This document shows, one piece after another, positions 25,148 to 43,492 of a stretch of 64,000 nucleotides of DNA. Source of the stretch: an uncultured Gemmatimonadales bacterium (GTDB lineage: Bacteria; Gemmatimonadota; Gemmatimonadetes; Gemmatimonadales; GWC2-71-9); contig CAVOOB010000001.1 of NCBI GenBank assembly GCA_963697435.1, positions 142,276 to 206,275 on the forward strand, read 5' to 3'. The position numbers and the translations under genes are program-made. The notes below the pieces were generated by a model, which worked only from the letters and a program-made list of their open reading frames with translations, was not told the DNA's origin and ran no database searches. Each line of letters starts with the position of its first letter. Position 1 is the stretch's first letter.

Positions 25148-25153
25148 GGCGCG

Positions 25154-25573: not shown

Positions 25574-25690
25574 GGTCCCGCTCCCCGCGTGTAGTTGGAT
25601 TCCGACAAGACTCTTCAAGAATCGACAGCCGGCCGACTCGGAGCAAGGCCCGAACGGTCGATTAAGGAACTCTTCACGCCGACTTTAGCC

Positions 25691-26499
25691 TCACTGCCCC
25701 GAGGTCGCTGCCTGGTGGAAATCGGTCATCATCCGCTCGTGATCGCCGTACTCGGGGCGGCCCTTCTTCATCTCTGCATCGTAATGAGACAGGAACGCCT
25801 TGTAGGCCTTCTTCAAGGCAGCATCGTCCTTGTTCCACCGGGCCACCGTGCCCTGGATCACATAGCCGAACAGATGCCCCGGATCCTGAATCAGGAGGGT
25901 GTCGGCGATCGCGGCGGCCCCGGCAACGTCCCCGCTGTGCAGCTTCAGGGTGGCCAGGTGGAATCGGGCATCGGCGTCGATCGTCTCCAACCGCTCGTAC
26001 GCCATCATGGCCATCGGTGTCATGGTGGTGACGGTCTGCTGATCGCCCGATTCAGAGGCCCGCATGATCCGGTTGTAGAGGCGGTCGAAGGCCTCACGCG
26101 GTGTCATGGTGCTGAGGTCGGGGAGCGGCCCAGCGCCGGCCCCTCCCGCAAAGGGCGCGGCGGAACCGCCGGCGCCGACCACGCCGGCCGCCTCCGGGGC
26201 ACCCCCGCTGCCGCGCACCACCAGGGCGAGCACCGCCACGAGGAGCACGGCGCTCACGACCGCCGCCACCGCCCACGCCTTTCGATCGCCGGGCGCCGAC
26301 GACGACGCACCCTGCCCAGCGCCGGCGCCTGCGCCTGCGCCTGCGGCGTCCCGCACTGGGTGCAGAACTTGGCGCCAGCCGCCAGCGGGGCATGGCAGGA
26401 GGCGCAGGTGCGCGGGCCGAGGCTCGCACCGCAGTGTCGGCAGAACTTCCCTTCGGCGTCGGCGCCGCAGGAGGGGCAACGGGTCGTCTTGGAGGCCAT
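25691..26499 (-). pseudogene. Zinc-ribbon / TM / helical-repeat protein, one frameshift
   Basis: ORF 26254..26499 (MASKTTRCPSCGADAEGKFCRHCG...CASCH...FCTQCG) continues into the frame of ORF 25691..26479 (...ASSSAPGDRKAWAVAAVVSAVLLVAVLALVV + soluble domain). The shift is near ~26320, beside a (gcgcct)3 repeat. Confidence 0.6.
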
Positions 26500-26594
26500 C
26501 GGACAGAATCCAGGGTATGAGGGTGGGTATTGGCCGGAACTAATCTAGCCAGACCATCGAGATCGCGGGACCGCAATAATACTGAGGGGGGGGG

Positions 26595-27653
26595 TCAGCA
26601 GATGCGGGGGAGCTGATCTCCGGGGAGCATGTCCACGATGCGGGTGCCACCCAGCCCCGTCCTGAGGACCACCATGCCGGGGTGCTCGGCGACGGCCGCC
26701 CCGGCGATGACCGCCTGGGCACCGAGGGGGTGGCTGCGGAGCGCCGCCAGCGCCGCATTCGCCGCCTCCGCCGCGACGAACGCGACGAGGACGCCTTCGT
26801 TGGCCACGTACATCACGTCGAGCCCGAGCAGATCGCAGACCGACGCGACGGGCCCCGGAACGGGGAGCGCCCCGTCCTCGAGCACGACGCCGATCCTGGC
26901 GGCACCCGCGATCTCATTCAGGGCGCTCGCCAGACCACCGCGGGTCGGGTCTCGCAGGACGTGCACCGACGCTCCCACCGATTCGCGCAGCAGCTCCACG
27001 AGGGGAAAGAGGGTGGCGGCGTCGCTCTCGATGGCCGCGTCGAAGGCGATTCCCTCGCGCGCCGCCATGATGGCCATGCCGTGCGACCCGATCGGCCCAC
27101 TCACCAGGATGGCATCGCCGGCGCGCGCGCGCTCAGGGCTCGGACGGAAGTCGGCCCGCAGTTCGCCGATGCCGGTGGTGTTGATGTAGAGCTTGTCGGC
27201 CTTGCCACGTTCCACGACCTTGGTGTCCCCGGTCACCACGGGCACTCCCGCCGCCCCGGCCGCCTCGGCCATGGAGGCGAGCACCCGGTCGAGCAACGCC
27301 AGTTCGAGCCCCTCCTCCAGGACAAAGCCGACGGTGAGGCACACCGGCCTCGCCCCGACCATGGCGAGGTCGTTCAAGGTGCCGTGCACCGACAGCGACC
27401 CGATGTTGCCACCGGGAAACTCCACCGGGCTCACCACGAAGGTGTCCGTCGAGATCGCCACCTCCTGCCCGTTGACGGGGAGGACGGCCGCGTCGCCCAG
27501 CTGTTCCAGGACCGGGTTCCGCAGGTGCGGCAGGAAGCGTTCGTTCAGCAGCGCCGCGCTCAGCTTTCCGCCCGATCCGTGCCCCAGCTGGACGCGGTCG
27601 GTTGCCGCAACGGGCAGCGGACAGGTAGGACCTCCGCCGATCGTGACGGTCAT
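26595..27653 (-). CDS. hypE: Hydrogenase maturation protein HypE
   Basis: MTVTIGGGPTCPLP...GHGSGG... with the canonical C-terminal PRIC. The ATG at 27653 lies directly after the hypD stop (27655). Confidence 0.95.
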   Translation of the reverse strand: MTVTIGGGPTCPLPVAATDRVQLGHGSGGKLSAALLNERFLPHLRNPVLEQLGDAAVLPVNGQEVAISTDTFVVSPVEFPGGNIGSLSVHGTLNDLAMVGARPVCLTVGFVLEEGLELALLDRVLASMAEAAGAAGVPVVTGDTKVVERGKADKLYINTTGIGELRADFRPSPERARAGDAILVSGPIGSHGMAIMAAREGIAFDAAIESDAATLFPLVELLRESVGASVHVLRDPTRGGLASALNEIAGAARIGVVLEDGALPVPGPVASVCDLLGLDVMYVANEGVLVAFVAAEAANAALAALRSHPLGAQAVIAGAAVAEHPGMVVLRTGLGGTRIVDMLPGDQLPRIC

Positions 27654-27654
27654 C

Positions 27655-28764
27655 CTATGCCTCCGGTGCCACGGCCGACCGATGGCGACCGAAGTTGTAG
27701 TAGGCCGCGCAGGCTCCTTCGGAGGAGACCATCGGCGCACCGAGGGGACGTTCCGGCGTGCAGAGCGTGCCGAAGGCGGGGCATTCAAACGGTTTGAGCG
27801 TTCCGCGGAGCACCTCCCCCGCCCGGCATTCCGCCGGCTCATCGACCGCGACGTCCTCGAGGCCGAACCGGAGCTCGGCGTCGAAGTCCGAGAACTCGGG
27901 CCGCAAAACGAGCCCACTCTTCGGGATGGTCCCCACACCCCGCCACTTCCGGTCGGCCAGCTCGAACACCTTCCGGACGAGATCCTGCGCTGGCGGCGTC
28001 CCGATGCGACGGACGGCGCGGACGTACTGGTTCTCGACCTCGTGTCGCCCTTCCTCGAGCTGACGGACCGCGAGCGCGATCCCCTCGAGGATATCGACCG
28101 GCTCAAACCCGGTAACGACGATCGGCACCTTGTACCTGGCGGCGATCGGCTCGTATTCCGTCCACCCCATCACGCTGCAGACGTGGCCCGCCGCCAGGAA
28201 GCCCTGCACGCGGTTCTCAGGCGCGTCGAGAATGGCGACCATGGCCGGGGGCACCGTGACGTGGGAGACGAGCACGCTGAAGTTCGGCACCCCCAGCTCC
28301 TTCGCCCGGAACACCGCCATGGCGTTGGCCGGGGCCGTCGTCTCGAAGCCGACCGCGAAGAACACCACCTGCTTGTCGGGATGCTTGATGGCCAGGTCGA
28401 GCGCATCCAGCGGCGAGTAGACCACACGCACGTCCCCGCCCCGCGCACGGATCTGCTGGAGGTCACACTCGCTGCCGGGGACGCGCAGCATGTCGCCGAA
28501 GGAGGTGAACAGGACGTCGGGCCGCGCCGCGAGCATCAGCGCCTTGTCGATCTGCTCGAGCGAGGTGACGCACACCGGACACCCGGGGCCATGGATCATC
28601 TCGACCGCCGGGGCGAGGATCTCGTCGAGCCCCTGCTTGACGATGGTGTGGGTCTGGCCACCGCAGACCTCCATGAGGACCCAGCGGCGGGTGGCGCTGT
28701 CGAGAATCTGGCGGACCAGGGTGCGCGCCAGCACGGGATCCCGGTACTCGTTGAGGTATCTCAT
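27655..28764 (-). CDS. hypD: Hydrogenase maturation protein HypD
   Basis: [10 protein letters not shown]...[11 protein letters not shown]...GPGCPVCVT motifs; 369 aa. Confidence 0.95.
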
Positions 28765-29015
28765 GGCGTCACCCCGAGTTCCCCCTCGAGGAGGCTCATC
28801 TCGCGGAGCATCTCGTAGGTGCGCTTGGCCTCCTCTTCATCCACCTTGGAGATAGCGAAGCCGACATGGACCACCACGTAGTCACCCGCCACCACCTCGT
28901 CCGCCACGTACGCCAGACAGACGTCCCGGCGCACGCCACCAAAGTCCACGGTCCCCATCGGAAGCCCGCTATCGCCGCGGATGTCCACGATCTGTCCAGG
29001 AATGCCGAGACACAT
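28761..29015 (-). CDS. hypC: Hydrogenase assembly chaperone HypC
   Basis: Starts [10 protein letters not shown]; 84 aa; overlaps the hypD start by 4 nt. Confidence 0.9.
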
Positions 29016-29041
29016 GGAACGCCTCCTTCGGGTTCAATCGG

Positions 29042-31372
29042 TCAACGTGCCAGTCGTGCGGCAGCCACGGCGGCCTGCCCGAAGCTGATGGCTCCATCGT
29101 TGGGGCTGAGGCGCCGGGGCCAGAGGACGGTCAGTCCGAAGCCCTGCAGCCGGCCCACCAGCGAGGTGAGCAGCCGCGCGTTCTGGAAAGTGCCCCCGCC
29201 GAGGGTAACGGTTCGGATGCCGCTCTCCTCGGACACCCGGCGGATCACCTCGGCGGCGGCCCACGCAATGCTCGCATGGAAATCGGCGGCGAGGTCTGCC
29301 ACGTTGTCACCCCGCTGCCGGCGCGAGCCGAGGACCGCCAGCAGGTGCAGCGGGTCGATAATCCAGGCTCCCTCGTCCGAACGATCCAACCCCACCCGAA
29401 TTTCGGAGGCGACGCGCCGCCCCGCAAGCGATTCGAGTTCCATCGCCGCCTGCCCCTCGTAGTCCGCCTTCAGGCGGAGTCCGAGGACGGCTGCGGCCGC
29501 ATCGAAGAGCCTTCCCATGGAGGACGCCCACGGAGCGTTCACCCCCCGTGTTGCCTGAAGTTCGGCGACGGCCCGCTCCGCCTCCTGGATGCCATCGAGC
29601 GCCAGGGTGAACGCATTCCCAAGGTGCGGGTCCAGCATCAGGTAGCCGAGTGCGGCGCGCCACGGATTGCGGGCGGCGAGGTCGCCGCCGGGGAGCGGGG
29701 CAGGCCGCAGGTGCCCGACGCGGCGAAAGCCGAGGAGGTCCGCCTGGAGAACCTCGCCACCCCAGACGCCGCCATCCGCGCCGTAGCCCACGCCGTCGAA
29801 CGAGAGCGCAAGCACCGGATCGGTCCGACCATGCTCCGCCATGACCGCGGCTGCGTGGGCGTGGTGGTGCTGCACCGGTTCCAGGACCCGCAACCCCGAT
29901 TCCAGCGCGACGCGAGTCGAGAAGTACCCCGGGTGCGCGTCGTGGACGACCGCCTCGGGCTCGATGCGGAACAGCGTCTTGAACCGGTCGAGCGCCGCGT
30001 GGAAGTGCTCCAGCGTCTCCAGGTTCTCGAGGTCACCGATATGCTGACTGACATACGCGCGCGCGCCGTGCACCAGCGTGAAGGTGTTCTTGAGATGCGG
30101 CCCGACCGCCAGGAGCGGTACCGGACTCCCGACCGGCAGATCGAGGGGGAGCGGCGCGTACCCCCGCGCGCGCCGCATCAGGATCGGCCCAATCTCCGTG
30201 GGCCGCACCACCGAATCATCGTACCGGGCGACGATCTCGCGATCATGAAGCAGGAAGCCGTCGGCGATGCCCTCCAACCGCGCCAGCGCCTCCTCATTCC
30301 CGGTCGCGATGGGTTCATCGCTCACGTTGCCGCTGGTCATCACCAGTGGCCGGCGGACCCGGTCGAGGAGGAGGTGATGCAGGGGTGTCGTCGGCAACAT
30401 GACGCCCACCCAGGCGAGCCCGGGGGCCACTCCCTCGGCCAGAGGATCGCGCGCTCCTCGCTCCAGCAGCACGATCGGGCGCTTCGGTGAGCGGAGGAGC
30501 AACGTCTCATCCCGGCCCACCACGCCGATTTTCCCCGCCTCCTCGAGGGTGCGGACCATGATCGCGAATGGCTTCGCCTCGCGGCGCTTCCGCAACCTGA
30601 GCTGCGCAACGGCGGATGCGTTGGTGGCGTCGACCGCCAGCTGGAACCCACCCACCCCCCTGAGCGCGACAATGCCGCCCTTGAGCAGTGTCAGCGCGGC
30701 GGCGGACAGCGCCTCGTCCGAAGCCGCCGTCTGTGTCGCGCCCTCTGGCGAGGCGTACCAGAGACGGGGGCCACATGCCGGACAGCTGTTCGTCTCCGAA
30801 TGGTGGCGTCGGTCGACCGGCGAGTCGTATTCGCGCTGGCAGGCCGCGCACTGTATAAAGACCGCCATGCTGGTTCGCGCGCGATCGTACGGCATCGACT
30901 CGATGACCGTGAAGCGAGGGCCGCAGTCGGTACAGGTGATGAACGGATATCCGTACCGGCGGTCCGCCGGATTCCGGAGCTCGGCCTCGCACTCGGCGCA
31001 AACGGCCACATCGGGCGAGACCGGCTGCCGTCGGTCCGGCTGCGCCTGGCTCGCCTCGATGGCGAAACCGCTGAGCCCGGTGACGATGCGTGTCGTCACG
31101 TCGATGCGCTCGATTTGCGCCAGCGGAGGTGCCTCGAGTTCGAGCGCCACTACGAACTCCTCCAGGGCGGCCGGGGCGCCTTCGACTTCGATCTGGACTT
31201 CGCCGGCGGTGTTGAGCACCCACCCGGCGAGTTGATGACGCAGGGCCAACCGATGCACAAAGGGGCGGAAGCCCACCCCTTGTACAACGCCCGAAATTCG
31301 GACGGCACGCCCCTCCCGGTCGTTCAGACCGATACGGGACGCCGCGCCAGCTGCCGGAGCAAGTTGTACCAC
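29042..31372 (-). CDS. hypF: Carbamoyltransferase HypF
   Basis: 776 aa. Acylphosphatase domain (VQGVGFRPFVHRLA), two zinc-finger pairs (CAECEAEL...CTDCGPRF; CAACQREY...CPACGPRL), and YrdC/Kae1-like domains. Confidence 0.95.
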   Translation of the reverse strand: MVQLAPAAGAASRIGLNDREGRAVRISGVVQGVGFRPFVHRLALRHQLAGWVLNTAGEVQIEVEGAPAALEEFVVALELEAPPLAQIERIDVTTRIVTGLSGFAIEASQAQPDRRQPVSPDVAVCAECEAELRNPADRRYGYPFITCTDCGPRFTVIESMPYDRARTSMAVFIQCAACQREYDSPVDRRHHSETNSCPACGPRLWYASPEGATQTAASDEALSAAALTLLKGGIVALRGVGGFQLAVDATNASAVAQLRLRKRREAKPFAIMVRTLEEAGKIGVVGRDETLLLRSPKRPIVLLERGARDPLAEGVAPGLAWVGVMLPTTPLHHLLLDRVRRPLVMTSGNVSDEPIATGNEEALARLEGIADGFLLHDREIVARYDDSVVRPTEIGPILMRRARGYAPLPLDLPVGSPVPLLAVGPHLKNTFTLVHGARAYVSQHIGDLENLETLEHFHAALDRFKTLFRIEPEAVVHDAHPGYFSTRVALESGLRVLEPVQHHHAHAAAVMAEHGRTDPVLALSFDGVGYGADGGVWGGEVLQADLLGFRRVGHLRPAPLPGGDLAARNPWRAALGYLMLDPHLGNAFTLALDGIQEAERAVAELQATRGVNAPWASSMGRLFDAAAAVLGLRLKADYEGQAAMELESLAGRRVASEIRVGLDRSDEGAWIIDPLHLLAVLGSRRQRGDNVADLAADFHASIAWAAAEVIRRVSEESGIRTVTLGGGTFQNARLLTSLVGRLQGFGLTVLWPRRLSPNDGAISFGQAAVAAARLAR

Positions 31373-31995
31373 GTGTCGAGCCCCTCACCGGTCAGGGCGG
31401 AGGTCTGGAAAAACTTCAGGTCCGGATTGACCTCTCGTGCAAAGCCAAGCGCCTGCTCCAGGTTGAACGGCACATGGGGGAGCAGGTCGATCTTGGTCAG
31501 GACCGCGTAGCGTGCCTGCTGGAACACCTTGGGATACTTGAGCGGCTTGTCCTCGCCCTCCGTCACCGAGAAGAGCACCACCTTGGCATCCTCCCCGAGG
31601 TCCCAGCTCGCGGGGCAGACGAGGTTGCCGACATTTTCGACGAAGAGCAAGTCGGTGGCCGCCAGGTCGATGGCTTCGAGGGCGGTCTCGACCTGTCTCG
31701 CATCGAGGTGGCAGGCGCCGCCGGTCACCACCGCCTGCACCAGGCGCGTCGTGTGCCGGGCCAGCCGGTCGGCATCGTTCTGGGTCTGCACGTCCCCGGT
31801 CACCACCGCCATCCGGAGTTCGTCGCCGAGGGCGGCGAGGGTGCGCTCGAGGAGGAGTGTCTTTCCCGATCCCGGAGAGGACACCAGGTTCAGCGCCGGG
31901 ACCCCGGCGGCGGCGAGGCGTGCCCGGACCGTGCCGGCAATCTCGTTGTTTCGAGCCATGACTGGCTCTCGGAGTTCAATTGTCCTGACGGTCAT
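31324..31995 (-). CDS. hypB: Hydrogenase nickel-incorporation GTPase HypB
   Basis: SSPGSGKTLLLE P-loop, ...ENVGNLVCP...TKIDLLP. Start taken at MTVRTIEL (31995). Confidence 0.9.
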   Translation of the reverse strand: MTVRTIELREPVMARNNEIAGTVRARLAAAGVPALNLVSSPGSGKTLLLERTLAALGDELRMAVVTGDVQTQNDADRLARHTTRLVQAVVTGGACHLDARQVETALEAIDLAATDLLFVENVGNLVCPASWDLGEDAKVVLFSVTEGEDKPLKYPKVFQQARYAVLTKIDLLPHVPFNLEQALGFAREVNPDLKFFQTSALTGEGLDTWYNLLRQLARRPVSV

Positions 31996-32236
31996 CGTCG
32001 AGCTCCAGGTAAGTGACGCGAAGCACATCGCCCTGGCACCGGGTCATGGCGGGCCGGGCCCGGTGGAACGGTGGTGCGGCCAGCAGTGCCTCGAGGCAAA
32101 AGAGCAAGTTGTCGGGCTCAAGGCCGGAGTCGTCTCCGACATCGAGCCCGACGGTAATGAGCTGCGGCAGTTCTGCCGGGGAGAGTCGCTCCTCCGCGAG
32201 GCGGCAGACCTCCACCGCCACGCTCATTTCATGCAT
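31976..32236 (-). CDS. hypA: HypA-like nickel metallochaperone lacking the zinc-finger domain
   Basis: 86 aa. It starts MHEMS (MHE Ni-binding N-terminus). It ends ...RCQGDVLRVTYLELDDD, which aligns to the E. coli HypA C-terminus (RRCPQCHGDMLQIV...). The CxxC-X12-CxxC segment is absent. Confidence 0.7.
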   Translation of the reverse strand: MHEMSVAVEVCRLAEERLSPAELPQLITVGLDVGDDSGLEPDNLLFCLEALLAAPPFHRARPAMTRCQGDVLRVTYLELDDDRQDN

Positions 32237-32738
32237 GGGCCGGTGCGCGCGGTGAAACCCGGATACCCCATTCCCTCAGTTGACCTGCCATCCGATCGGG
32301 AAGTCGGTCGGTTCCCCGCTCCACCGCGGGGGTCATGTCGGACCGCATTTCGACCACCGATGGCTCGACGCCGAGCGCCACCGTCATCGGGGGGAGTGTC
32401 CCGCGCACCTGGGCGAGTGTCAGCACGTCCACGATATCCACCTGGTGCACCGAGATCTTCTGCCCCAGCACCTTCGGCAGGTCCGGACCGTCGAGGAACA
32501 CGTCCGCGCCGGGTTCGAGCCCGGCGCGGATGGCGTCGACCAGCAGCAACTTGCCGGCGGACTCGATATAGGGGAGCAGGTTCATTCCCCAGGTGCCGCC
32601 GTCCATCAGCTCGATGCCATCGCCAACGTCGAACCGGTCCCGGAACCGCTCCAGCGCGATGATCCCCACGCCGTCGTCGCCCATGATGGGGTTGCCGAGG
32701 CCCAGGACGAGGACCGGCCGGACGTTATTCGTCCACAT
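32229..32738 (-). CDS. hupD: [NiFe] hydrogenase maturation endopeptidase (HyaD/HupD family)
   Basis: VLVLGLGNPIMGDDGVGIIA signature. Start taken at MWTNN (32738), overlapping the cytochrome b stop. Confidence 0.85.
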   Translation of the reverse strand: MWTNNVRPVLVLGLGNPIMGDDGVGIIALERFRDRFDVGDGIELMDGGTWGMNLLPYIESAGKLLLVDAIRAGLEPGADVFLDGPDLPKVLGQKISVHQVDIVDVLTLAQVRGTLPPMTVALGVEPSVVEMRSDMTPAVERGTDRLPDRMAGQLREWGIRVSPRAPAHA

Positions 32739-33492
32739 ACTGGATGTCCGCCTTGATGTAGTGGCCTCCGCTGAAGATGCCCGACAGTCCACCGCCATGT
32801 TCCGTAATGTCCTTCCGGAGCACCAGGTAGATGTGGATGATCGGGAAGACGATAAACCACCAGGTGCAGAGGTGGTGGGTCAGGCGGATGATCTGGATCC
32901 CGCCAACGGCGAGGACCATCGGCTCCGTGAGGCCGTACCAGAACCCGCCGGGGTTGGCCTGCCCGTACATGGCGAAGCCCGTGAACACCATGACCGCGGC
33001 GATCAGGTAGGTGAAGGTGTAGCTCAACTGCTGCAACGGGTTGTGCCCGATGTAGTAGATGCCGTGATCCCCTTCGATCATCAGGTAGTACTTGATCTGT
33101 TTCCAGAGGTTGACCCAGTCGCGCCACCGGATCGGGAAGAGCGCGGGGAGACGCTCGAACTGATTGCCCGCGAAGAGCCAGTAGATCCGGATCAGCCCGG
33201 CGGCCACGAGCAGTCCCGCGGCAATGAAGTGGGCCAGGCGGATGTAGCCCATCAGGAACTCGGGTGGTCCGCCGGTGGTGAGGAAGTAGGGTCGATTGAT
33301 GAAGAAGCCGGTGACCACCAGGGCGGTGATCGTGATGAACGCCACCCAGTGGGTGAACCGGAGGGGGCCGCCCCACGGTGAGACCCAGCGGTAGTCACCC
33401 GAGGGTGGGGCGGAATGCCGTCCAAGCGGAAAGAGCGGCGAATCGGCGAGGGGCGGCGGCGCGGGGCCATGCCGCGGCGTGGAAGTCGTCAT
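32725..33492 (-). CDS. hupC: Ni/Fe-hydrogenase b-type cytochrome subunit
   Basis: Four-TM protein (RFTHWVAFITITALVVTGFFI..., IRLAHFIAAGLL..., HNPLQQLSY...). Start MTTSTP at 33492 overlaps the large-subunit stop. Confidence 0.85.
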   Translation of the reverse strand: MTTSTPRHGPAPPPLADSPLFPLGRHSAPPSGDYRWVSPWGGPLRFTHWVAFITITALVVTGFFINRPYFLTTGGPPEFLMGYIRLAHFIAAGLLVAAGLIRIYWLFAGNQFERLPALFPIRWRDWVNLWKQIKYYLMIEGDHGIYYIGHNPLQQLSYTFTYLIAAVMVFTGFAMYGQANPGGFWYGLTEPMVLAVGGIQIIRLTHHLCTWWFIVFPIIHIYLVLRKDITEHGGGLSGIFSGGHYIKADIQYVDE

Positions 33493-35204
33493 TGGACCTT
33501 GACCTCCACGATCGGATTCCCGGCGGCGTCGAGCACGTGGACACCACACGCCATGCAGGGATCGAAGGAGTGGATCGTGCGCAGGATCTCGAGCGGCTGC
33601 TCCGGCCGGAGCAGCGGGTGGTGATCCATCAGCGCCGCCTCGTAGGGCCCGGGCACGCCTTGTTCATCCCGCGGGGAGCAGTTCCAGGTGCTGGGCACCA
33701 CGCACTGGTAGCGGGAGATCTTGCCATCCTGAATCTGAACCCAGTGGCCAAGGGCGCCACGGGCGGCGTCGAGGTATCCGTAGCCCTGGGCCGTCTTCGG
33801 CCAGGTCTCGGGGTCCCAGAACTCGCCGTTGAAGGTGCGGGTATCGCCGTTCTTGATGCGGTTGACGAGTTGGCCGTACCAGTTCTGCATCTGGTTGGCC
33901 AGCAGCACCGTCTCCATGCAGCGCGCGCCCACGCGGCCGAGCGTCGAGAAGAGCGCGGCCGGCGGCACGTCGAGGCGGGTCAGGAGTTCGGTCACAATCT
34001 CCTTGATGTCGGGCTGGCCCGCGGCGTAGCCGACCAGCATCCGCGAGAGCGGCCCGACCTCCATGGGACGCCCATCGTACCGCGGCGACTTCATCCAGGT
34101 GTACTTCTTCTCGTCCTGCAGGTACGTCCACGGGGTCGGCGGGCCGGTGTACTTCGGGACCGTCTCCCCCTCCCACGGGTGGAGCGATGCGGCATCGCCG
34201 CCGGAATACTCGTACCAGGAACTGGTGATCCCCTCCGTGACCAGCGTCTGATCGTACGGATACACCTTGGAGAGGTCGCGGTTCAGGACGATCCCGCGGG
34301 GGAAGTAGAGCGAATCGAGGTCGTTGGTGTCGACGGCGGCGTACTCGCCGACGGTGAGGTAGTTGCCCGTCCCGCCGCCGATGGCGCCCCAGTTCTTATA
34401 GAACCCGGCGATGGCCTGCACGTCGGGCCAGTACACCTCGTCCACGAACCGCTTGGCGCGGGTGATCATCGCCTGCACATCGGAGAGGCGCGCCGCGTTG
34501 ATGGTCGCGGTGTCGTTGAGGTTGATGGCACTGGCCATGCCGCCGACCAGGAAGTTCGGGTGCGGGTTCTTTCCGCCAAAGATCGTGTGGAGGCGGATCA
34601 CGTCCTTCTGCCAGTCGAGCGCCTCGAGGTAGTGCGCCACCGCCAGGAGATTCACCTCCGGCGGGAGCTTGTAGGCGGGGTGGCCCCAGTAGCCGTTGGT
34701 GAAGATGCCGAGCTGGCCACCGGCCGCGAATGTCTTGATCCGGTTCTGCACCTCGGCGAAGTAGGTCGCGGAGTTGTTGGGCCAGGGGGAAATGCTCTTG
34801 GCGATGGCCGCTGTCTTGGCCGGATCGGCGCTCAGCGAGCTAATGATGTCCACCCAGTCGAGCGCATGCAGGTGGTAGAAGTGGATGACGTGGTCCTGGA
34901 TGGTCTGCATCCCGTGGACCAGGTTGCGGATCAGGGTGGCGTTGGGCGGAATCTTGATGCCCAGGGCGTCCTCGACCGCGCGGCAGGAGGCGACGGCGTG
35001 CACCACCGTGCAGACGCCGCAGATCCGCTGGGTGAAGGCCCAGGCGTCGCGCGGGTCGCGTCCCTGCATGATGGTCTCGATGCCGCGGAACTGGGTGGAG
35101 GAGGCCCAGGCCGTGGAGATCATCTGGTTCTCCGCCGTGCACTCGATCCGGAGGTGTCCTTCGATACGAGTGATAGGGTCTACGACCACTTTAGTCTTGG
35201 CCAT
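33489..35204 (-). CDS. hupL: Group 1 [NiFe] uptake hydrogenase large subunit
   Basis: MAKTKVVVDPITRIEGH, L1 QRICGVCTVVH, L2 SFDPCMACGVHVLD with a C-terminal extension for proteolytic maturation. Confidence 0.95.
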   Translation of the reverse strand: MAKTKVVVDPITRIEGHLRIECTAENQMISTAWASSTQFRGIETIMQGRDPRDAWAFTQRICGVCTVVHAVASCRAVEDALGIKIPPNATLIRNLVHGMQTIQDHVIHFYHLHALDWVDIISSLSADPAKTAAIAKSISPWPNNSATYFAEVQNRIKTFAAGGQLGIFTNGYWGHPAYKLPPEVNLLAVAHYLEALDWQKDVIRLHTIFGGKNPHPNFLVGGMASAINLNDTATINAARLSDVQAMITRAKRFVDEVYWPDVQAIAGFYKNWGAIGGGTGNYLTVGEYAAVDTNDLDSLYFPRGIVLNRDLSKVYPYDQTLVTEGITSSWYEYSGGDAASLHPWEGETVPKYTGPPTPWTYLQDEKKYTWMKSPRYDGRPMEVGPLSRMLVGYAAGQPDIKEIVTELLTRLDVPPAALFSTLGRVGARCMETVLLANQMQNWYGQLVNRIKNGDTRTFNGEFWDPETWPKTAQGYGYLDAARGALGHWVQIQDGKISRYQCVVPSTWNCSPRDEQGVPGPYEAALMDHHPLLRPEQPLEILRTIHSFDPCMACGVHVLDAAGNPIVEVKVQ

Positions 35205-36327
35205 CGTGACCTCCCTCCGCCGCCGCAGCCGCTTTCTTGCGCGAGCGAATCTGGTGTACGGTAGTGGCGGTGGCATGCGCGGCCACGCCGGCAATGGTCC
35301 CGACCGCGAGCGCGGCGCCAATGGTGTCGGCGGTCTTCTCGATGCCGATGCCGGCCACGTTGGGCAACCGGGTGTAGAACGGGGTCATGGTGTCCCAGAA
35401 CCCACGCTCGGTGCAGCCGATGCACGGGTGACCGGCCCCGATCGGCCAGCTGGTCTTCATGTTCCACTGGAAGATCGGGCAGGGGCTGAAGGTCGCCGGC
35501 CCCTTGCACCCCACCTTATACAGGCACCACCCCTTGCGGGCGGCCTCGTCGTCAAATTCCTCGACATACTGGCCGGCGTCGAAGTTGGCCCGGCGCGGGC
35601 ACTGATCGTGGATCCGCGCGCCATAGGCGAAGAGCGGCCGACCGTCGGCGTCAAGCTCCGGAAGCCCGCCGAAGGTCAGGTAGTGGACCAGGGTGGCCGT
35701 GACCGTCTCGGCAATCGGCGGGCACCCGGTCAGCTGCACCACCGGCTTGTCCTTGATGATATCGGCGATGCCCACCGCCCCGGTCGGGTTCGGCTTGGCG
35801 GCCTGGACACTGCCCCAGTGCGCGCACGCGCCGACGCCGATCACCGCCTTGGCGCCGGCGGCGGCCTCGACCAGGATGTCCTTGGCCGTCCGGCCGCCGA
35901 TCACCGTATAGATGCCGTCCTCGGCGAGCGGCACCGAGCCGGTCACCACGAGGAGGTACTCGCCCATGTTGGCCTTCATCGAGGCGTGCAGCGCTTCCTC
36001 CGCTGCCGTGCCTGAGGCCGCCATGAGCGTGTGCGAGTAGTCGAGGGAGACGATGTTCAGGATCAGTTCGCCGATCGAGGGATCGGCGCTCCGCAGAACG
36101 CTCTCGACGCAGCCGGTGCACTCCTGCAGCTGAATCCAGATGACCACAGGCCGCTTGACGCCTTCCAGCGCGGCGGCCACGCGCGGTGCGGCCATTTCGG
36201 TCAGGCCGAGGAGCACGGCCATCTGGCCGCAGAACTCGAGGAAGTCGCGGCGGGATACGCCGCTTGTCTCGAGATGCTCGCCGAGGGTCTGATCTTTGGC
36301 CCAGGGGAACTGCGTGGGAAAGAACAT
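35191..36327 (-). CDS. hupS: [NiFe] hydrogenase small subunit with Tat signal and C-terminal membrane anchor
   Basis: ATG 36327 follows a GGAGG RBS. Tat motif SRRDFLEFCG. Fe-S cysteines (ECTGCVES, GACAHWG, CPRRANF, CLYKVGCKGP, CIGC). Hydrophobic C-terminal tail. Confidence 0.95.
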   Translation of the reverse strand: MFFPTQFPWAKDQTLGEHLETSGVSRRDFLEFCGQMAVLLGLTEMAAPRVAAALEGVKRPVVIWIQLQECTGCVESVLRSADPSIGELILNIVSLDYSHTLMAASGTAAEEALHASMKANMGEYLLVVTGSVPLAEDGIYTVIGGRTAKDILVEAAAGAKAVIGVGACAHWGSVQAAKPNPTGAVGIADIIKDKPVVQLTGCPPIAETVTATLVHYLTFGGLPELDADGRPLFAYGARIHDQCPRRANFDAGQYVEEFDDEAARKGWCLYKVGCKGPATFSPCPIFQWNMKTSWPIGAGHPCIGCTERGFWDTMTPFYTRLPNVAGIGIEKTADTIGAALAVGTIAGVAAHATATTVHQIRSRKKAAAAAEGGHDGQD

Positions 36328-36720
36328 CGTCTGAACCTCCGGTCCACAATGGTGCGGGATGGACCGGCGGCGGGAGGAGCCCGCCGTCGGGGGGGGAATC
36401 CAACTGAGACAACATCCGAATCGGCGAATAAATCTGATCTGAAGAGATTCTGAAGATGATTTCAGTACTGCTACGGAGTGGAGGATGCGCGATACGAATC
36501 GGAACTGCCGAGTTCCGCGAGAAACGGTCGCGTCACATTCATCGAGATGCGGCTGGAACGACGCCACCGCGGTATGCTGGAAGCGAAGATTCTCCAAAGA
36601 GTTAGTGAAGGAACAATAAATTTTGTAACGATAGCCCCGTATTGCCACGGAGACCCATTGCGCGAAAGCCCGGAGAGGGAAAAATTGCTCGCGTCCTCCC
36701 TCAACTCAAGGGTCATTCCT
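36328..36720. promoter_or_regulatory. 393-bp A/T-richer divergent control region between the hydrogenase operon and the cytochrome cluster
   Basis: No convincing CDS. Contains the palindrome ggaactgccgagttcc, the repeat cgaatcgg x2, and the inverted repeats ctgaa-N6-ttcag and gaggga-N16-tccctc. Confidence 0.4.
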
Positions 36721-38347
36721 ATGATGTCTCGCACCGTTCGCTCCCGCTCCCTCGCCGCCATCCTCGGCACGCTGGCGATCGTCTTCTTCGCCGGCTGTAC
36801 CGAGACCAACACCGAATACGTCGAGCGGCCGCAGTTCAATCCGCCGCCCGACTCGGTCAATGGCTACATGGGGTACTACAACGCCGCCACCAAGCAGACG
36901 ACCTGCGGCAACTGCCATGTCGGCTATCAGGGCACGTGGGTCGACACCGCGCACGCCGATGCCTACAACACGCTGGACGCCTCCGGGCCATGCCCAGTCG
37001 TTCTGCTACGGCTGCCACACCGTCAGCGATGACCGGCAACACGGCGCCGCGTCGGGCGAACCGGGCGGGTGGAACGTGGTGCACGAGCCCGGCCTACCAC
37101 GACGTGCAGTGCGAGAGCTGCCACGGCCCGGGCTACGACCACGTGTCGAACCCGAACGATGACAACCATCCGCTGGCACGTGCCGGCCTGAACGACACCG
37201 CCACGAGCTGCGGCGGCTGTCACAGCGGTCGAACACCACCCGTTCGCGGAGCAGTGGTCGCAGACCGGCCACGCCGATTCCGCGGCCAATGCGTACCCGG
37301 CCGGAGGCGGCACGGGGTGCGGCGCGACTTGTCACGAGGGCCGGACCGCGCTCGCCAAGTTCAACGGCGGGAAGCCGAGCACCTATATGGAACTCGACTC
37401 GATCGGCCAGATGACCACCCTGCCGCCGGCCACCTGCGCCGTCTGCCACGATCCGCACGGCAGCCCCTACCAGGGGCAGCTCCGCGCGCCGATCGACGTG
37501 CCTGACGTCACCGCCAACCTCTGCATGAATTGCCACAACCGGGGCACCTCCGCCGAGCGGCAACTTCTCCAATTCGACCGCGACCAGCACCAAGCGCGGC
37601 GCGCACGCCTCGCAGGGCCCGATCGTGCTCGGCCAGGGCGCCGGGTACATTCCGCCGCTACTTCGTCTACGACACCAACCGGGCGTACACCTCGCACGCC
37701 TCGCTCAACGAACCCGCGGCTCTGCGCCGGCTGCCATGTCAAGCTACCGTGAGCGATCCCATGACCGACGGCGTTCATCTTCCAGTCCGTGGGGCATCTC
37801 TTCTCGCCCGAACCCCTGCCTCGACGCGGTCACGGGCGAGCCGATCGACCGACAACAGCTGTGCTTACCTGCCAAGCAGCACGCGCAATGGACCGGCTGC
37901 CTGACCGCCGGCTGCCACGCCAGCGCCGATGTGGCGGCCTCGGCCCTGGTCAATCAGCGGTCGCTGATCGCCAGCCTGGCCGACCAGCTCTGGAACGACC
38001 TGAACCCCACGCTCAACAGCGGCGGCGAGCCGTACATGGACGCGGCCGACGCCGGCGACCTGGTCTACCTGCTCTTCACCGCCGGCAACCCGACGGTGAA
38101 TGGCGTCCAGGCCTTCGACCCGGACGACAACACCGTGTCGCCGGCCGGAGGGCGCCCTATTCAACGTCCGATGATGCTGGCCGAGGACCTCTACGACCAC
38201 AACGACGGGTCCTACGGCGTCCACAACCCGTTCTACTACGAGGCGCTGCTCGCGGCCAGCATCGCGGAGGTCAACGAGGTGTACAGATACTTTCCTCCCG
38301 CTCCACCGAGCCCGCCAGTCAAGGCGTCTCGATGGACAAGGCGCTGA
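36721..38347 (+). pseudogene. Multihaem cytochrome c lipoprotein (about 9 haem motifs), multiple frameshifts
   Basis: Start MMSRTVRSRSLAAILGTLAIVFFAGC. Haem motifs are spread over 3 frames: CGNCH, CYGCH, CESCH, CGGCH, CGATCH, CAVCH, CMNCH, CAGCH, CLTAGCH. Confidence 0.7.
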
Positions 38348-38713
38348 GCCGCCCGGCGGGCTCCAGCGTTCCAGCACCCAGATTGCTGGGCTCGAAATCA
38401 GGTCGGCCGGCCAGCATCGTTGATCCGGCGCAAGCTGTCCCATCGTGCCGTCGACCTGAGCCAGTGCTCCGGATCGGCGGCACGATTCGCATGAGCTCGC
38501 GCTGGCGTTCCCGTCCTGTTCCTGCGTAGGATTGAGTTCCCCCTACTGAGCGAATGCCTGTGATCCCCTCGACATCGCTGCCTCTCCCTCCTGCAGGTCG
38601 TCCAGGATTCGGCGGCCTTCCATCGGTTCCAGGAGGGGGTACCCCCGCAGCCCCCACCGCTCCCCGGCGGCATCACCACGGTACTGCGGGCCATCTTCAA
38701 TGCCCCGCTCTGG

Positions 38714-40549
38714 ATGTGGCTGGCGGGCATCGCCGTTGGCCTCACCGTCGCGGGATCCTGGGCGCCGGTCTGGACGAATCGAGCGGCAATCTGGAAGTGG
38801 CTCGACCAGCGATCGCGGGGCCAAGCTGGCGCTGGGCTCCACCGGGGGACTGATCCTGGCCATGGTGACAGGGATGTGGGCTACAAGGTCAATCACTATA
38901 TGGAGCACGACAACGACTTCTGCGTGGTTGCCATGTCTTCATCCCCTACGGCCAGCCGTTCGTCCGCCCGGACACCGGCACCTACCTCATCGTCAACCAG
39001 CTCGAGGGAAAGCACGACACCCTCGAGTGCCATGACTGCCACCTGCCGGACAAGATCGGCCCAAGCCCAGGAGCTGATCCTGTGGATGGTCGATCGGCCC
39101 GACAAGGTGCCCGAGCACGCCAAGGTCCCCCCCACGGTCTGCAAGAGCTGTCACGAGTCCGGGGAGGCCAAGGAGAGCTGGCAGGAAATCGTCACCACGG
39201 CTGGGCATCGCGTTCACTTCGAGTCCGATTCGCTCGAGGCCGAAGAGGTCGAGTGCCTCACCTGCCACGCCCGATCGGCCCATCGATTCGAACCGGTGGA
39301 TTCGACCTGTTCCCAGCAGGGATGTCACCTGACCGATGACGTGACCATCAAACTCGGCAAGATGACGGACGCCGTGGGGCTGCATTGCGCCGTTTGCCAC
39401 GAATTCACCGCCGACGTGCCCAAACTGGCCACCTTCGACTCGGCGAGCGGCACCCTGGTGCCGGGCGATGGCCAGTGCTTCAGCTGTCACGAGATGCAGG
39501 AGCGGCTCAAGGACTTCGACCCGAGGCGCGACCCGCACGACGGGAAGTGCGGGATGTGCCACAACCCGCACACCAACGTCGAGCCGGACGGACGCCCGGA
39601 GAGCCTGCGCGACGGCCGGCATGCCACGGCGACTGGCGAGCAGGTCGAGTTCCACACCGGCCAGATGCACCGGGAGGGCGATCGAGAATTGCGAAACCTG
39701 CCACCAGCCGCACGCCGCGCGCGTGGACGCCAGTGCCTGCGCCGGCTGCCACGAACGGGTGCGCGGATCGGTCACCGGAAGGGCGGCTCCGAAAGCCTCC
39801 ACTGCCCTTCGACACCACCAAGGCGCTCCGCTCGCGTTCGGCGCGGCCAGACCCGATCGGCCCTCATGGAAAGGGCGACGCGCCGCCGGATGAGGACCCT
39901 CCGGCGGCGTTGGTCTCTCAGGCCCCGGCGGACAGCTTCGAGCATGCCGCAGCACAAGGACCTGGCGTGCCTCACCTGCCACGCGACATCCTCGGCCACG
40001 TCGACGCTGAACTTTGCCGCGCCCGCGCGGCTGCCAGCTCTGCCACCACTCGACCGCCGCCCGAGCGCGACTGCGCCGCCTGCCACAAGCCCCCGCCGAC
40101 TGGTCGCCGAGACCGACCGCGTCACCGTGACGGTGCCCGGAGCACGCCCCTCGCCCTCGGGATGTGAGCTTCGAGCATGCCCGCACACGGAGCTAGCCTG
40201 CAAGGAATGCCACACGACCCCGGTGTCGCTGGCTGCCCGCCGCCGAGGTCAAGGGCTGCGTCTCCTGCCACGAGCAGCACCACACGGAGGCGAGAGATTG
40301 TGCCGCCTGCCACGCCGGCGGGGACATCGAGGCGCCGCACACACCGCCCGGCCATGGCCCATGAGGGGTGCGATGCCTGCCACACACCGGCGCGGATCGC
40401 CCAGCTGACACCATCCCGACCGTTCTGCCTGACCTGCCACCAGCCGCAGGCGGCCGATCACTACGCGGCACCAGGAGTGCACCCCCTGCCACCTCGATGC
40501 CACGCCCGCTGAATGGCGCTCCCGACTGGCGGGCAGGAGGGGTGCGTGA
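38714..40549 (+). pseudogene. Membrane-anchored NapC/NrfH-like large multihaem cytochrome c (about 19 haem motifs), multiple frameshifts
   Basis: TM segments WLAGIAVGLTVAGSWAPVW and LALGSTGGLILAMVTGMWA lie in different frames. FCV-GCH is disrupted by a 1-nt loss. Other motifs: ECHDCH, CKSCH, CLTCH, CSQQGCH, CAVCH, CFSCH, CGMCH, CETCH, CAGCH, CLTCH, CQLCH, CAACH, CKECH, CVSCH, CAACH, CDACH, CLTCH, CTPCH. The true start is uncertain. Confidence 0.65.
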
Positions 40550-42043
40550 CTCTGCGAGACGGTTGCCGCCGCGGCATTGCTCGTGGTCCTCATGCCGGGA
40601 ATCGCCGCGGCACAGGGCTACAACCTCCGGCTCACCGGCGGGCATCCAGAGCGTGAGCTTCCGCGGCTACACCGCCGACAGCATCCCGGTGGATAGCGTG
40701 GTAGCGACCAGCAACGGAAGCCTCGAGACGCCCACCGGCTATGCCGTGTCGTGCACCTCCGGCGCGCCCTACTGCAATTACTGGGTGCCTGGCCCGATCA
40801 ATGCCACCACACCGGCCGTGGCACAGGCCGCCCTGACGATGTGGGGCTTGGGGCTTCCGGGCCTGCGGGTGCAGGTGAATGGATATGCTGCCACCGACTT
40901 CAACGCGCGGGCGTCCTGGCCCGGCACGTCACCGAACTTCCAGCTCATCGAGGGCTACGCCGAGTACGCCGCCCCGTCCTGGACGCTGTTGGCGGGCCGG
41001 AAGGTCATCTCCGGCCGCCTCGGGAGCCTACGGGTTCGACGGCGGCCAACTGACGGGGCGCCTCGCGAGTGCCGGGTTGGCACTCTCCGGGTACGCAGGG
41101 ATCGGCCTGGCCCAGGGCTCGAACCTCTACATCACATCGAGCGACGTGAACCCCCAGGCCGACTACCTGCCCGCGCAGAGTCCGATTGTGGCGGGATTGA
41201 TCGGCACCTGGAATTCTCTCGCATGCCGAACTCAGCGCCGAGTACAGGCGAACAGTGGACCAGACGACCGACTACTTCGGGTCGGAACGTGTGGCGGCCT
41301 CGGCGACGCTGCGTCCATATGGTCATTGGAGCCTGGTGGGTGGCGCCATCTATGACATGGCGAGTGGGCTTTGGGGCAGCGCCGACGCCGCCGCTGCGCT
41401 TCGCCGCGCCGAAGGTCGGTGTCGTGGCCGGCTACAAACGGTACGCCCCCTTCTACGAGCTCTGGACCGTCTGGGGCGCGTTCAGTCCGGTGCCCTACAA
41501 CGCCATCTACGGCTCGGTCTCGTTCCAGGCCACCAAGCGCCTTCAGCTCCGCGTCCGCGGAGAGACGTACAAGTTCGAGGACACAGACACGGAGCACACC
41601 GCTGGTGTCCATTGGCAGACTCCGGATGGCGATATTCGCTTGGCGGGACCTACCAGATCTCGAACGCCTGGCAGGCCCAGCTCGGTTATGAAAACGAGTT
41701 CGGGACAGGCGCCAGTTCCAGTGGCTGGGACGGCAGCGTCACCTTCGCACCCAATGGCCAGTATTCGATCATGGTGTACGCCAATTCACTGTCACGTCCG
41801 CTCGAGTACCGCTGGGACCAATCGGTGGTCCTGATCTACGGGATGCAGGCCTCGGTCGTGGCGCGGGACAACCTCAGCGTGGCCTTCACGGTGGCACGCT
41901 ATGACGAGAATCGTGAACGTCCCGACGCCGCGTCGTTCGAGTGGGACCAGCTGCGCTTCGGGGCCAAGGTCGTGATGACCTTCAGTTCGGCAGACAGGAT
42001 GCCGCTCCCCAAGGCCATCACCAATCGACCGGCGGGGTACTGA
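40542..42043 (+). pseudogene. Putative outer-membrane beta-barrel protein (~500 aa), multiple frameshifts
   Basis: Signal reconstructed across frames: MRDSARR / VAAAALLVVLMPGIAAAQG. Amphipathic strand patterns include YSLGGTYQISNAWQAQLGYENEF, GQYSIMVYANSLS, VVLIYGMQASVVARDNLSVAFTVARY and LRFGAKVVMTF. No haem motifs. Confidence 0.55.
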
Positions 42044-42044
42044 G

Positions 42045-43492
42045 ATGCGACGTGTGCTCCCGCTCCTGACACTCAGCCTGGTGATCCTGACGGCTTCCGT
42101 TTCGGCACAGGACACCGATCGATTCGACCATCCCGAGCATGCGAAGGTCTTCCCGAGCTGCACCGCGTGTCATGCGGGCGCCGTGGATCCTGCGGCGCCG
42201 CTCCTCCCCTCGGGGAAGGGCTGCGTGAATTGCCATGACGGCACGATCGAACGCCGGGTCGAACTGGAAGGCGCCCCCGACGACCGGCACCAACCTCCGG
42301 TTCACGCACGCGGAGCATGGGAAAGAGGTGATCGTGAAGGTGGGCCGGGATTCGACGGTGAATTGCTCCGCCTGTCACATTCCCGACGGTCGCGTCGTGG
42401 ATGACGGTCGAGCCGGCGGTGCTGCCGCAGTGCTTCACGTGCCACGGCATCACGGCGGAGCATCTGTGCCGCCCCGGATACCGCCTGCGCCACCTGCCAC
42501 TACTCCCTTGCGCAAGCCACGGCACTCACCGCAGCCGACAGGTCGAGGCGTTCCCGACGCCTCCGTCGCATGACGCCGTCGGGTTCATGGGACCGGATGG
42601 CCACGGGGTCCAGGCCGAGGCCGGCACCGGGCCGAAGACCTACCGGGTCGCACCGAGTTGCGCCACGTGTCATGCGCAGAATTTCTGCATCACCTGCCAT
42701 GTGAACGCGCCGGAGACGCCTACCGATCCAGGCGCTCGCTCAGGACCCCCGGTCACTGGCCATTCCGGTGAAGCTCGAGGAACCGGCCACGCATCAGCAG
42801 GACAACTTCGTCCTGACGACATGGAAAGGACGCGCAAGAAGAACGCCGTGCCTGCCAGACCTGCCACACGCAGGAGAGTTGCTCGCCTGCCATGTCACGC
42901 CCGCCGCGGCCGGTGGCGACGCTGTACGCCAGCGGGCCCGGACGCGGCGAGGGCGCCCAGGTCGAGCGAAGCCGCCCGCCCAGCCACATGGCGGATTTCA
43001 GCACCATCCACGCACCGGTCGCCAGCAGCAATCCGCAGTCGTGCGAGGGCTGCCACGCGCGGCCGCAGTGCCTCGATTGTCATCGCGGGACGCCGGAGCG
43101 AACGCCGCAGTACCACCCGCAGACATTCCTGGAGCGGCACCCCGCGGCGGCGTATTCGCGCGAGACGAACTGCAGCGACTGCCATAATCCGGGCGCATTC
43201 TGCCAGACCTGCCATATGCAGTCCGGAATCGGCAGCCCCGACGCGGCCGTTGCAGGCGGGGTACCACGACGTCTTCCCGGGCTTTCTCCTGAACCATGGC
43301 CAGGCCGCCCGCCAGAGCCTCGAGAGTTGCACCTCGTGTCACGTGGAGAAGGACTGCCTGACCTGCCACTCGGCGCTCTACGGTCGCGGATTCAATCCGC
43401 ACGGCCCCGGGTTCAATGCGGACAAACTCCGCTCGAAGAACCCGCAGATGTGCACGGCCTGTCACGGATTGAATGTGCCGGGCGGAAACTGA
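42045..43492 (+). pseudogene. Periplasmic multihaem cytochrome c (c3/c7-like, about 16 haem motifs), multiple frameshifts
   Basis: Signal MRRVLPLLTLSLVILTASVSAQ. Motifs: FDHPEHAKVFPSCTACH, CVNCH, FTHAEH...CSACH, CFTCH, CATCH x2, CITCH, CQTCH, CLACH, CEGCH, CLDCH, CSDCH, CQTCH, CTSCH, CLTCH, CTACH. Confidence 0.7.

Follow-up and report, generated by a model that had tools for sequence, protein, structure and literature searches.

A frameshifted multihaem cytochrome cluster in an uncultured Gemmatimonadales bacterium is probably a working operon with the anatomy of a porin-cytochrome conduit

Is a gene cluster that is interrupted by dozens of frameshifts an operon in the course of being lost, or a working operon that was poorly assembled, and what would its products do? 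The question arises from four genes, termed here g1 to g4, that occupy positions 36721-43492 of the plus strand in a 64,000-nt stretch of DNA from an uncultured Gemmatimonadales bacterium (the window, to which all coordinates refer). Of the 43 CXXCH haem-binding motifs on the plus strand of the window, 39 fall within 36904-43451, where they are distributed over all three frames, and the minus strand has three such motifs in the whole 64 kb. Reading through 36.9-43.3 kb takes about 35-45 frame changes, as estimated from frame plots of GC content at third codon positions (GC3) and from a codon-score path that forbids stop codons. A preliminary description of the locus offered loss and bad assembly as alternatives; we find that bad assembly fits much better and loss fits worse, the frameshifts being most likely local sequencing or assembly errors and not gene decay. 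We put the probability that the operon works and that its sequence was merely polished badly at about 0.65-0.7. In g1 to g4 the window has its own copy of an operon that is conserved in Gemmatimonadales and that has, as architecture, the anatomy of a porin-cytochrome conduit.

The layout of the cluster can be read from an intact orthologous locus on a MEGAHIT contig (L003; loci of relatives are given L numbers), in which g1-g4 are simple open frames and are flanked, as in the window, by divergent hup/hyp genes on one side and by an HSP20-UbiA-HSP20-FGGY-EamA series downstream. As the preliminary description had it, there are four consecutive plus-strand genes, haem-rich except for a haem-free barrel gene, and the L003 products place the haem-binding motifs at 9, 20, 0 and 16, or about 45 in total. 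The first gene, g1 (36721-38529; 580 aa in L003, with seven CXXCH and two CX3-4CH motifs), encodes a lipoprotein multihaem cytochrome, as judged from its lipobox, from tblastn pieces in three frames and from the Pfam matches of the L003 orthologue. It is followed by g2 (38554-40549; 656 aa, 18 + 2 motifs), an inner-membrane-anchored cytochrome identified by its haem motifs, a transmembrane hairpin and a family search; by g3 (40542-42043; 496 aa), a signal-bearing, haem-free protein identified through homologues and structure prediction as an outer-membrane beta-barrel; and by g4 (42045-43492; 479 aa, 16 CXXCH), a Sec-exported periplasmic cytochrome recognised from its haem motifs, export signal and Pfam matches. 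The GTG start of g3 at 40542 lies within the end of g2, whose TGA occupies 40547-40549, and g3 abuts g4 (42043/42045), which starts two bases past the g3 stop, so that the proposed overlap and abutment both hold at the coordinates first given. Every gene is indeed frameshifted in the window: the L003 orthologues map onto it as several tblastn pieces in different frames.

Intact syntenic clusters, a search for which had been suggested as a check, turned out to be common, with the four-gene order present in many Gemmatimonadales metagenome-assembled genomes (MAGs). All four genes are intact in the short-read loci L003, L014, L019 and L020, and also in L011. The frame-corrected g3 product has 341 homologues, the best of them 86% identical; most of those listed are near 496 aa in length, the named sources are all "hypothetical protein", and the named taxa are Gemmatimonadales or Gemmatimonadota. 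With one genome per GTDB species, we recovered 470 relatives of the barrel; of the 80 that were listed, nearly all come from MAGs of Gemmatimonadales. Gene order was counted in 80 of the 470 barrel loci, the denominators being the loci with enough flanking sequence: g4 lies downstream of the barrel in 72/72, g2 lies upstream of it in 62/70, and g1 is present in 55/55, in its standard position in 48. Because a profile search that covered all of 1.84 billion cluster representatives returned only 485 barrel matches at E<=0.001, the family is, by sequence, compact and restricted to this lineage. The genomes closest to the window are only ~85% identical to it, and exact-pattern scans of metagenome contigs, one of which tolerated the presence or absence of two insertions, yielded no independent copy of the operon from the same species. 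Two copies sit in genomes labelled as other taxa, a typical Gemmatimonadales locus (L015, identical to L002) in a MAG labelled "uncultured proteobacterium" and a copy (L074) in one labelled Vicinamibacterales (Acidobacteriota); mislabelling, mis-binning or horizontal transfer could account for these labels.

The indels that break the genes are confined to a dense patch at 36985-43242 (plus strand). A five-locus DNA alignment assigned 34 single-base insertions, eight single-base deletions and a few longer events uniquely to the window, and per-gene alignments counted 20 window-specific frame-disrupting events in g1, 17 in g2, seven in g3 and 10 in g4; a few of the large per-gene events are end-of-alignment effects, and the overall figure is ~45 indels. 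By gene, this amounts to ~14-20 breaks in g1, whose 3' end is uncertain (~38400-38529), ~15 in g2, whose start is uncertain and whose first ~75 codons are strongly diverged, ~6-7 in g3 and ~10 in g4. Outside the patch, 11 of 12 aligned flanking genes had no event, and the single 13-nt gap in the twelfth, EamA, was taken as an alignment-end effect. In the same way hypB, hypA, hupD, hupC, hupL, hupS, both copies of HSP20, ubiA, FGGY, EamA, ECH, AAA21 and DciA each matched L003 as single full-length pieces. Within the patch, indel spacing is Poisson-like (mean 141 nt, standard deviation 149); the segment 39550-40150 has eight of the insertions. Sequencing error of the homopolymer type was rejected as the cause, since 21 of the 34 inserted bases are not part of a homopolymer, and so was a composition anomaly, the GC content of the cluster being that of its surroundings (~66% across the window). 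If the extra bases were polymorphic sites doubled in a mixed-strain consensus, insertions should gather beside third codon positions, and a test found a weak excess there (30/38 against 25 expected).

When the window's genes are read in the intact frame, no stop codon appears; all 41 CXXCH and all four extended haem motifs are kept, as are 52 of the 53 invariant and 57 of the 60 near-invariant residues of the barrel. The ratio of nonsynonymous to synonymous rates (dN/dS) between the window and L001, its closest relative, is 0.07-0.25, no different from that of intact gene pairs or of the flanks. Among the changes that only the window has, 94 in the cluster are nonsynonymous and 109 synonymous, and the flanks have 95 and 181. 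Synonymous changes are thus equally frequent per codon (109 in 2215 codons of the cluster, 181 in ~3500 of the flanks), and the ratio of nonsynonymous to synonymous changes (N/S) in the cluster, 0.86, is inside the range of intact lineages (0.55-1.8). Neither in-frame stops nor raised dN/dS nor loss of essential motifs, the marks of relaxed selection, was seen in the cluster, though such measures are insensitive to a very recent inactivation.

Relatives show where indels of this kind can come from. Five MAGs of relatives come from the Microflora Danica project, which used nanopore reads only, assembled them with Flye and polished the result in a single Medaka round (PMC12313526). Each lineage among the five has single-base insertions of its own, many of them away from homopolymers, and these affect the hydrogenase, FGGY and UbiA genes as well as those of the cluster. 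Because 17 such events fall in 6.65 kb of cluster and 11 in 10.6 kb of flank, a ~2.5-fold difference in density, the operon is a mild hot-spot for consensus error in general. No single-base event was found in short-read L003, L014 and L020, or in L011. In six of the seven Microflora Danica nanopore MAGs that have this locus (L001, L007, L010, L012, L013 and L018), g1 is interrupted by one frameshift or by two, at positions that differ in every case (within about 6250-8000 of each locus); in the seventh (L002/L015) g1 matches only partially, and g1 is intact in short-read assemblies. In L001, moreover, a frameshift fuses ubiA with the next HSP20 gene.

Because the frames are stop-free, the motifs kept, dN/dS like that of intact genes and the flanks clean, and because the indel spectrum recurs in nanopore MAGs, we favour an artefact. 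The 313,044-bp length of the source contig suggests a long-read or hybrid assembly, and the frameshifts would most likely be errors in the consensus of a metagenome assembled from long reads, limited to a region where read support is poor. Such support could be lacking if, for example, the operon is accessory or varies between strains: were it carried by some members of the population only, few reads would cover it, and the shared flanks would be deeply covered; alternatively, its allele may be so divergent among co-existing strains that few reads serve in polishing. Low read support limited to the operon would explain why the patch ends near the operon boundaries. The indel density of the cluster is ~0.7%, and by a rough estimate the error of a raw modern single long read is near this value. 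Random substitution errors at about the same level would add about the ~20 nonsynonymous changes by which the cluster exceeds expectation.

What the operon encodes depends above all on g3. We modelled its closest intact orthologue (P0001) with AlphaFold2 (AF2) and obtained an all-beta structure with a signal helix (predicted local distance difference test, pLDDT, 80.8; predicted template modelling score, pTM, 0.72), in which ~22-24 long antiparallel strands enclose no plug or cork domain. A Foldseek search of this model against the PDB returned large outer-membrane barrels only, namely the FimD usher, MOMP, MtrB, AlgE and OprC, with MtrB (6R2Q chain B, listed as 6r2q_B) at rank 4 (E 1.8e-8). 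At the sequence level, neither g3 nor its intact orthologue matches any Pfam or NCBIfam family at E<=1, and when a profile built from 48 sequences of the family was run against the PDB, no chain came up at E<=10, and 6R2Q_B was thus not matched either. The product of 40542-42043, which had been called barrel-like from its strand periodicity, is thus predicted by its model to be a large outer-membrane beta-barrel. The locus thus shows a trait of the porin-cytochrome conduit class, a signal-bearing, large predicted outer-membrane barrel that is encoded beside multihaem cytochromes and conserved with them as a unit.

Two of the three cytochromes share a domain with the surface cytochromes of known conduits. 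The lipobox by which g1 had first been called a lipoprotein is present (FFAGC in the window; LAGC or FAGC across the window and the orthologue), and the L003 orthologue matches PF22113, MtrC/MtrF domain II/IV, at 44.5 bits (cut-off 30). By sequence, g1 is thus a lipoprotein cytochrome with an MtrC/MtrF-type multihaem domain and is predicted to lie at the cell surface. The intact orthologue of g4 matches Cytochrome_C7 at 45 bits and PF22113 at 39 bits, above its cut-off; the match of g4 to the HmcA model NF045713 reaches 15.7 bits over ~70 residues, for a cut-off of 400. Against PDB sequences, g1, g2 and g4 give only marginal matches of the c3/c7/PpcA type. The cluster encodes no catalytic reductase subunit, no molybdo/FeS partner and no CXXCK motif, and we therefore rejected a known periplasmic reductase system as its identity. 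The two outcomes that the preliminary description had named as fatal to its proposal, a g3 product that is no barrel and membership of the cluster in such a reductase system, were thus not encountered.

The largest haem protein, g2, is tied to the inner membrane by two hydrophobic helices (residues 42-69 and 81-106, by hydropathy and AF2). Because the tail before these helices is acidic and the loop between them basic, both ends of the protein, and hence the haem domain, are predicted to face the periplasm. The AF2 model has a mean pLDDT of 41.8 and is confident for the two transmembrane helices only. The intact orthologue matches only generic c3/c7 families in Pfam, and its homologues were found in Gemmatimonadales only, those with a source name being almost all "hypothetical protein". 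The first reading of g2 as NapC/NrfH-like survives as a resemblance of layout, since the haem domain would be periplasmic and the first haem motif follows the membrane helix by ~10 residues, as in NapC, NirT, NrfH and CymA. By profile, membership in that family falls away: neither g2 nor any of 120 homologues matches PF03264 (NapC/NirT), and the NrfH model TIGR03153 scores 16.9 bits, for a cut-off of 134, on a different part of the protein. Members of that family have one helix and four haems, whereas g2 has two helices and 20 haem motifs. The N-tail of g2 (residues 12-45 of P0391) is among the most conserved parts of the protein, with D20, V24, P29-D30-P31, V36-Q37, F40-Q41, P43 and W45 invariant in 50 sequences. 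Its strong conservation suggests a specific interaction on the periplasmic side.

Divergent from g1 lies a hydrogenase locus that is complete and unbroken. On the minus strand, hupS, hupL, hupC (cytochrome b), hupD, hypA and hypB (31327-36327) match L003 as single full-length tblastn pieces with 87-93% identity. Beyond them, at 22498-31372, also on the minus strand, follow an open reading frame (ORF) in the position of hypF, then hypC, hypD, hypE, one ORF of unknown function, ccmE, ccmF and ccmH; the named hyp and ccm genes of this series are single open frames with full Pfam matches, and the hypF position holds a single 776-aa ORF (29042-31372) that we take to be hypF because its L001 counterpart carries HypF Pfam domains. 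The hupSLC-hupD-hypABFCDE-ccmEFH cluster described at the outset thus stands, intact, on the evidence of tblastn, ORFs and Pfam. HupS scores 447 bits against TIGR00391 (cut-off 179.5) and has a weak match to a twin-arginine (Tat) signal, HupL matches large-subunit models of Ni/Fe hydrogenases, and Ni_hydr_CYTB and HycI domains were found in the orthologous locus. The neighbour is, by these matches, a group 1 membrane-bound [NiFe] uptake hydrogenase.

The divergent hup/hyp arrangement recurs in at least 12 related species. Across the family, hupL lies within 10 kb of the barrel in 17/45 loci with enough flanking sequence, and most other members have the operon with no hydrogenase beside it. The proposed hydrogenase link is read, tentatively, from synteny that is constant in the close clade of the window and not across the family as a whole. 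Within that clade, the 393-bp divergent spacer between hupS and g1 (36328-36720) was compared in a MAFFT alignment of 13 orthologous spacers. Conserved across the 13 genomes are a hairpin, GGCGGCGGG-N5-CCCGCCGTC, beside the hupS ribosome-binding site; repeats of the form CTGAAGA-N4-CTGAAGAT...TCAGTA, in which CTGAAGA forms direct repeats; and a leader of ~130 nt before g1 (…GTGAAGGAAC…TTTGTAACGA…CCCCGTATTGCCACGGAG…ATTGCGCG…). Scans of the spacer found no Rfam family and no match to a sigma-70 or terminator consensus. Because the hairpin, the CTGAAGA repeats and the leader are all conserved in a spacer that both transcription units share, the alignment suggests that the operon and the hydrogenase are regulated together in the window's clade.

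From these parts we infer the topology of the proteins, a path and direction for electrons and, as set out above, the cause of the local error patch. HupSL would oxidise periplasmic H2 and reduce quinone through HupC. The inner-membrane hairpin of g2, with its ~20 periplasmic haems, would reoxidise the quinol or receive electrons by another route. The 16-haem g4 would continue the chain and probably occupies the g3 barrel, as MtrA does in MtrB, because a barrel without a plug, if left empty, would be an open hole in the outer membrane. The nine-haem g1, with its MtrC-like domain, would form the surface-exposed end and pass electrons to minerals, humics or partner cells. The simplest circuit would thus run from H2 through HupSL, HupC and quinol to g2, g4/g3 and g1, and on to an acceptor outside the cell; the anatomy would fit flow the other way, in metal oxidation, just as well. 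Together g2 and g4 have 36 haems and, by a rough estimate, could bridge the periplasm without a soluble shuttle.

How firmly can the frameshifts be ascribed to the assembly? A number of observations weigh against our preferred reading, and several of them would be explained by a real, very recent inactivation, in which the conduit is no longer needed and the whole operon decays by small indels while its neighbours stay under selection. The patch ends at the operon boundaries between clean flanks, a coincidence that operon-wide decay explains more naturally than random error, and the flanks of the window are cleaner than any nanopore MAG that we examined, so that a special local cause, such as a drop in coverage or a mixture of strains, must be assumed. 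Multi-base deletions of 4-23 nt, out of frame, also occur in the cluster. Comparison with relatives further reveals a strongly diverged stretch at 38388-38765 (plus strand), made up of the g1 tail, a spacer that contains a 140-nt insertion and the opening ~75 codons of g2. Its identity to relatives is only ~52%, whereas these share 65-76% among themselves here; several of the invariant N-tail residues of g2 are replaced in it, the usual g2 start codon is missing, and the insertion was not found elsewhere in the window or in the fetched loci. On the branch leading to the window, N/S is somewhat higher in the cluster than in the flanks (0.86 vs 0.52). A second frameshifted gene of the window, encoding the family-B DNA polymerase (PolB) of a mobile element, could moreover be an ordinary pseudogene. 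Inactivation is nevertheless unlikely in our judgement, given stop-free frames, dN/dS as in intact relatives and the retention of every haem motif and of nearly every invariant barrel residue. The ~20 excess nonsynonymous changes would set ~45 indels beside only ~40 neutral substitutions, a ratio of ~1:1, whereas mutation-accumulation and pseudogene studies usually give about one indel per 5-10 substitutions. The spectrum is biased towards insertions and lies mostly outside homopolymers, whereas bacterial decay is usually deletion-biased and slippage-driven, with spontaneous indels concentrated in repeats; and the same spectrum occurs as plain assembly error in the nanopore MAGs of relatives. 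That the dense single-base insertions are real and stem from some unrecognised, localised process of insertion mutagenesis, or are recoded, is a far less likely reading. In the recoding version, the extra bases of a heavily recoded locus would be bypassed by programmed +1 frameshifting, hopping or transcript editing, and it can appeal to underlying frames that are perfectly conserved and to events that are mostly +1 insertions. We give it next to no credence, because inspection of 38 sites revealed no shared context or slippery motif, codon phases are mixed, deletions of one nucleotide and longer occur as well, and no site is shared by any relative, the short-read orthologues being simple open frames.

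If the operon works, it could still serve something other than electron transfer across the outer membrane: the cytochromes might form a periplasmic electron store or a respiratory branch, for instance to a soluble acceptor, and the barrel might be an ordinary solute porin. Such a role would fit the finding that no component is, by profile, a member of the Mtr, NapC/NrfH or HmcA families, the generic character of the Foldseek matches, among which MtrB is one of many, and the status of g1 surface exposure as a prediction. It is nonetheless quite improbable, because the barrel, with its ~22-24 strands and no plug or internal domain, is much larger than solute porins of the usual 16-18 strands; because multihaem genes always accompany the barrel (72/72 for g4; 62/70 for g2) in frames that overlap or abut; because g1 combines a lipobox with an MtrC/MtrF-type domain; and because the cluster offers no catalytic subunit, CXXCK motif or molybdo/FeS partner to a periplasmic reductase. 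The fullest version of the conduit goes well beyond the anatomy, to a conduit whose barrel and two largest cytochromes are unrelated by sequence to those studied so far, which is co-regulated with an uptake hydrogenase in one clade and which carries H2-driven respiration of Fe, Mn or humics, or electron uptake. We advance it tentatively, as a plausible proposal with the odds somewhat against it. No component is orthologous to any part of an experimentally studied conduit, the hydrogenase is a neighbour in a minority of family loci, and the quinol-oxidising role that we infer for g2 has no profile match behind it; all three count against the function proposed here.

The second frameshifted stretch has a setting of its own. 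The PolB gene lies at ~9265-12326 (plus strand) in an apparent mobile element and is split over at least four frames at ~10029-10640; its full-length homologues are 800-960 aa long and carry PF03175. About 3 kb away, at 5440-6579 on the minus strand, lies an ORF with a Cas1 domain (PF01867, E 7e-23), and Cas1 with PolB is the gene pair of casposons. A stretch of lower GC content (59%) at 12000-17900 probably belongs to the same acquired island as Cas1 and PolB; two minus-strand genes lie in it, one with a RES domain (13227-13928) and one for a 1268-aa protein with RCC1/Ig-like repeats (14078-17884). The second run of frameshifts thus falls, once again, in accessory DNA.

For the scanning of genomes, the cluster carries a caution: dense frameshifts confined to one operon of a clean contig are not evidence of gene loss, and here the run of frameshifts is read as a local consensus problem because substitution pattern, motif retention and indel spectrum all agree. 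Our search of the literature found general surveys only and no description of this Gemmatimonadales porin-cytochrome or hydrogenase-linked module. If the proposal is true, a widespread soil phylum would join the organisms capable of extracellular electron transfer, with parts that Pfam and NCBIfam do not recognise, and it would seem that the oxidation of H2 is tied directly, at the level of the genes, to respiration outside the cell.

How, then, does the operon compare with conduits that are already known? The preliminary description had assigned it to the Mtr/Pcc type, and the architecture bears this out, with a barrel, a lipoprotein cytochrome and a periplasmic cytochrome in conserved order; by sequence, the barrel and the two largest cytochromes belong to none of the Mtr, NapC/NrfH and HmcA families, and of the sequence traits of known systems that we compared, only the MtrC-like domain of g1 and g4 is shared. 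Like MtrCAB of Shewanella oneidensis (6R2Q), the locus groups the genes for a lipoprotein cytochrome of the surface, a large barrel of the outer membrane and a multihaem cytochrome of the periplasm; g1 and g4 have a region of the PF22113 type, and in structure the barrel has MtrB among its closest matches. The likeness of g3 to MtrB is at the level of the fold only, without sequence similarity to MtrB or PioB, and its ~22-24 predicted strands compare with the 26 of MtrB. Haem counts also differ, being 9, 16 and 20 here and not 10 and 10, and the DmsE/MtrA model TIGR03508 (cut-off 192) gives 32.4 bits for g1, 19.4 for g2 and no match for g4. The membrane-anchored 20-haem protein is encoded within the cluster, whereas in Shewanella its place is held by CymA, encoded elsewhere in the genome. 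Geobacter clusters such as OmaB-OmbB-OmcB and ExtABCD follow the same logic, combining a periplasmic cytochrome, a porin-like protein and a lipoprotein cytochrome; they differ in taxon, and the profile that we compared, the decahaem model of the GSU2203 family, indicates no orthology (29.6 bits, cut-off 325).

Conceptually, the operon is closest to the PCC3 clusters. These were described from genomes only as predicted conduits across the whole envelope, in which a porin is joined by an extracellular and a periplasmic multihaem cytochrome, both unusually rich in haem (He et al. 2017, PMC5566968). A further conserved component is an inner-membrane protein of five helices and two HX13H motifs, probably a dihaem cytochrome b, and the hosts of the clusters are mostly Proteobacteria (PMC5566968). 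The present operon has four genes and no five-helix protein, its sole membrane protein being g2, a c-type cytochrome with 20 haems and a two-helix anchor, and in contrast to the PCC3 clusters its family is found almost entirely in Gemmatimonadales.

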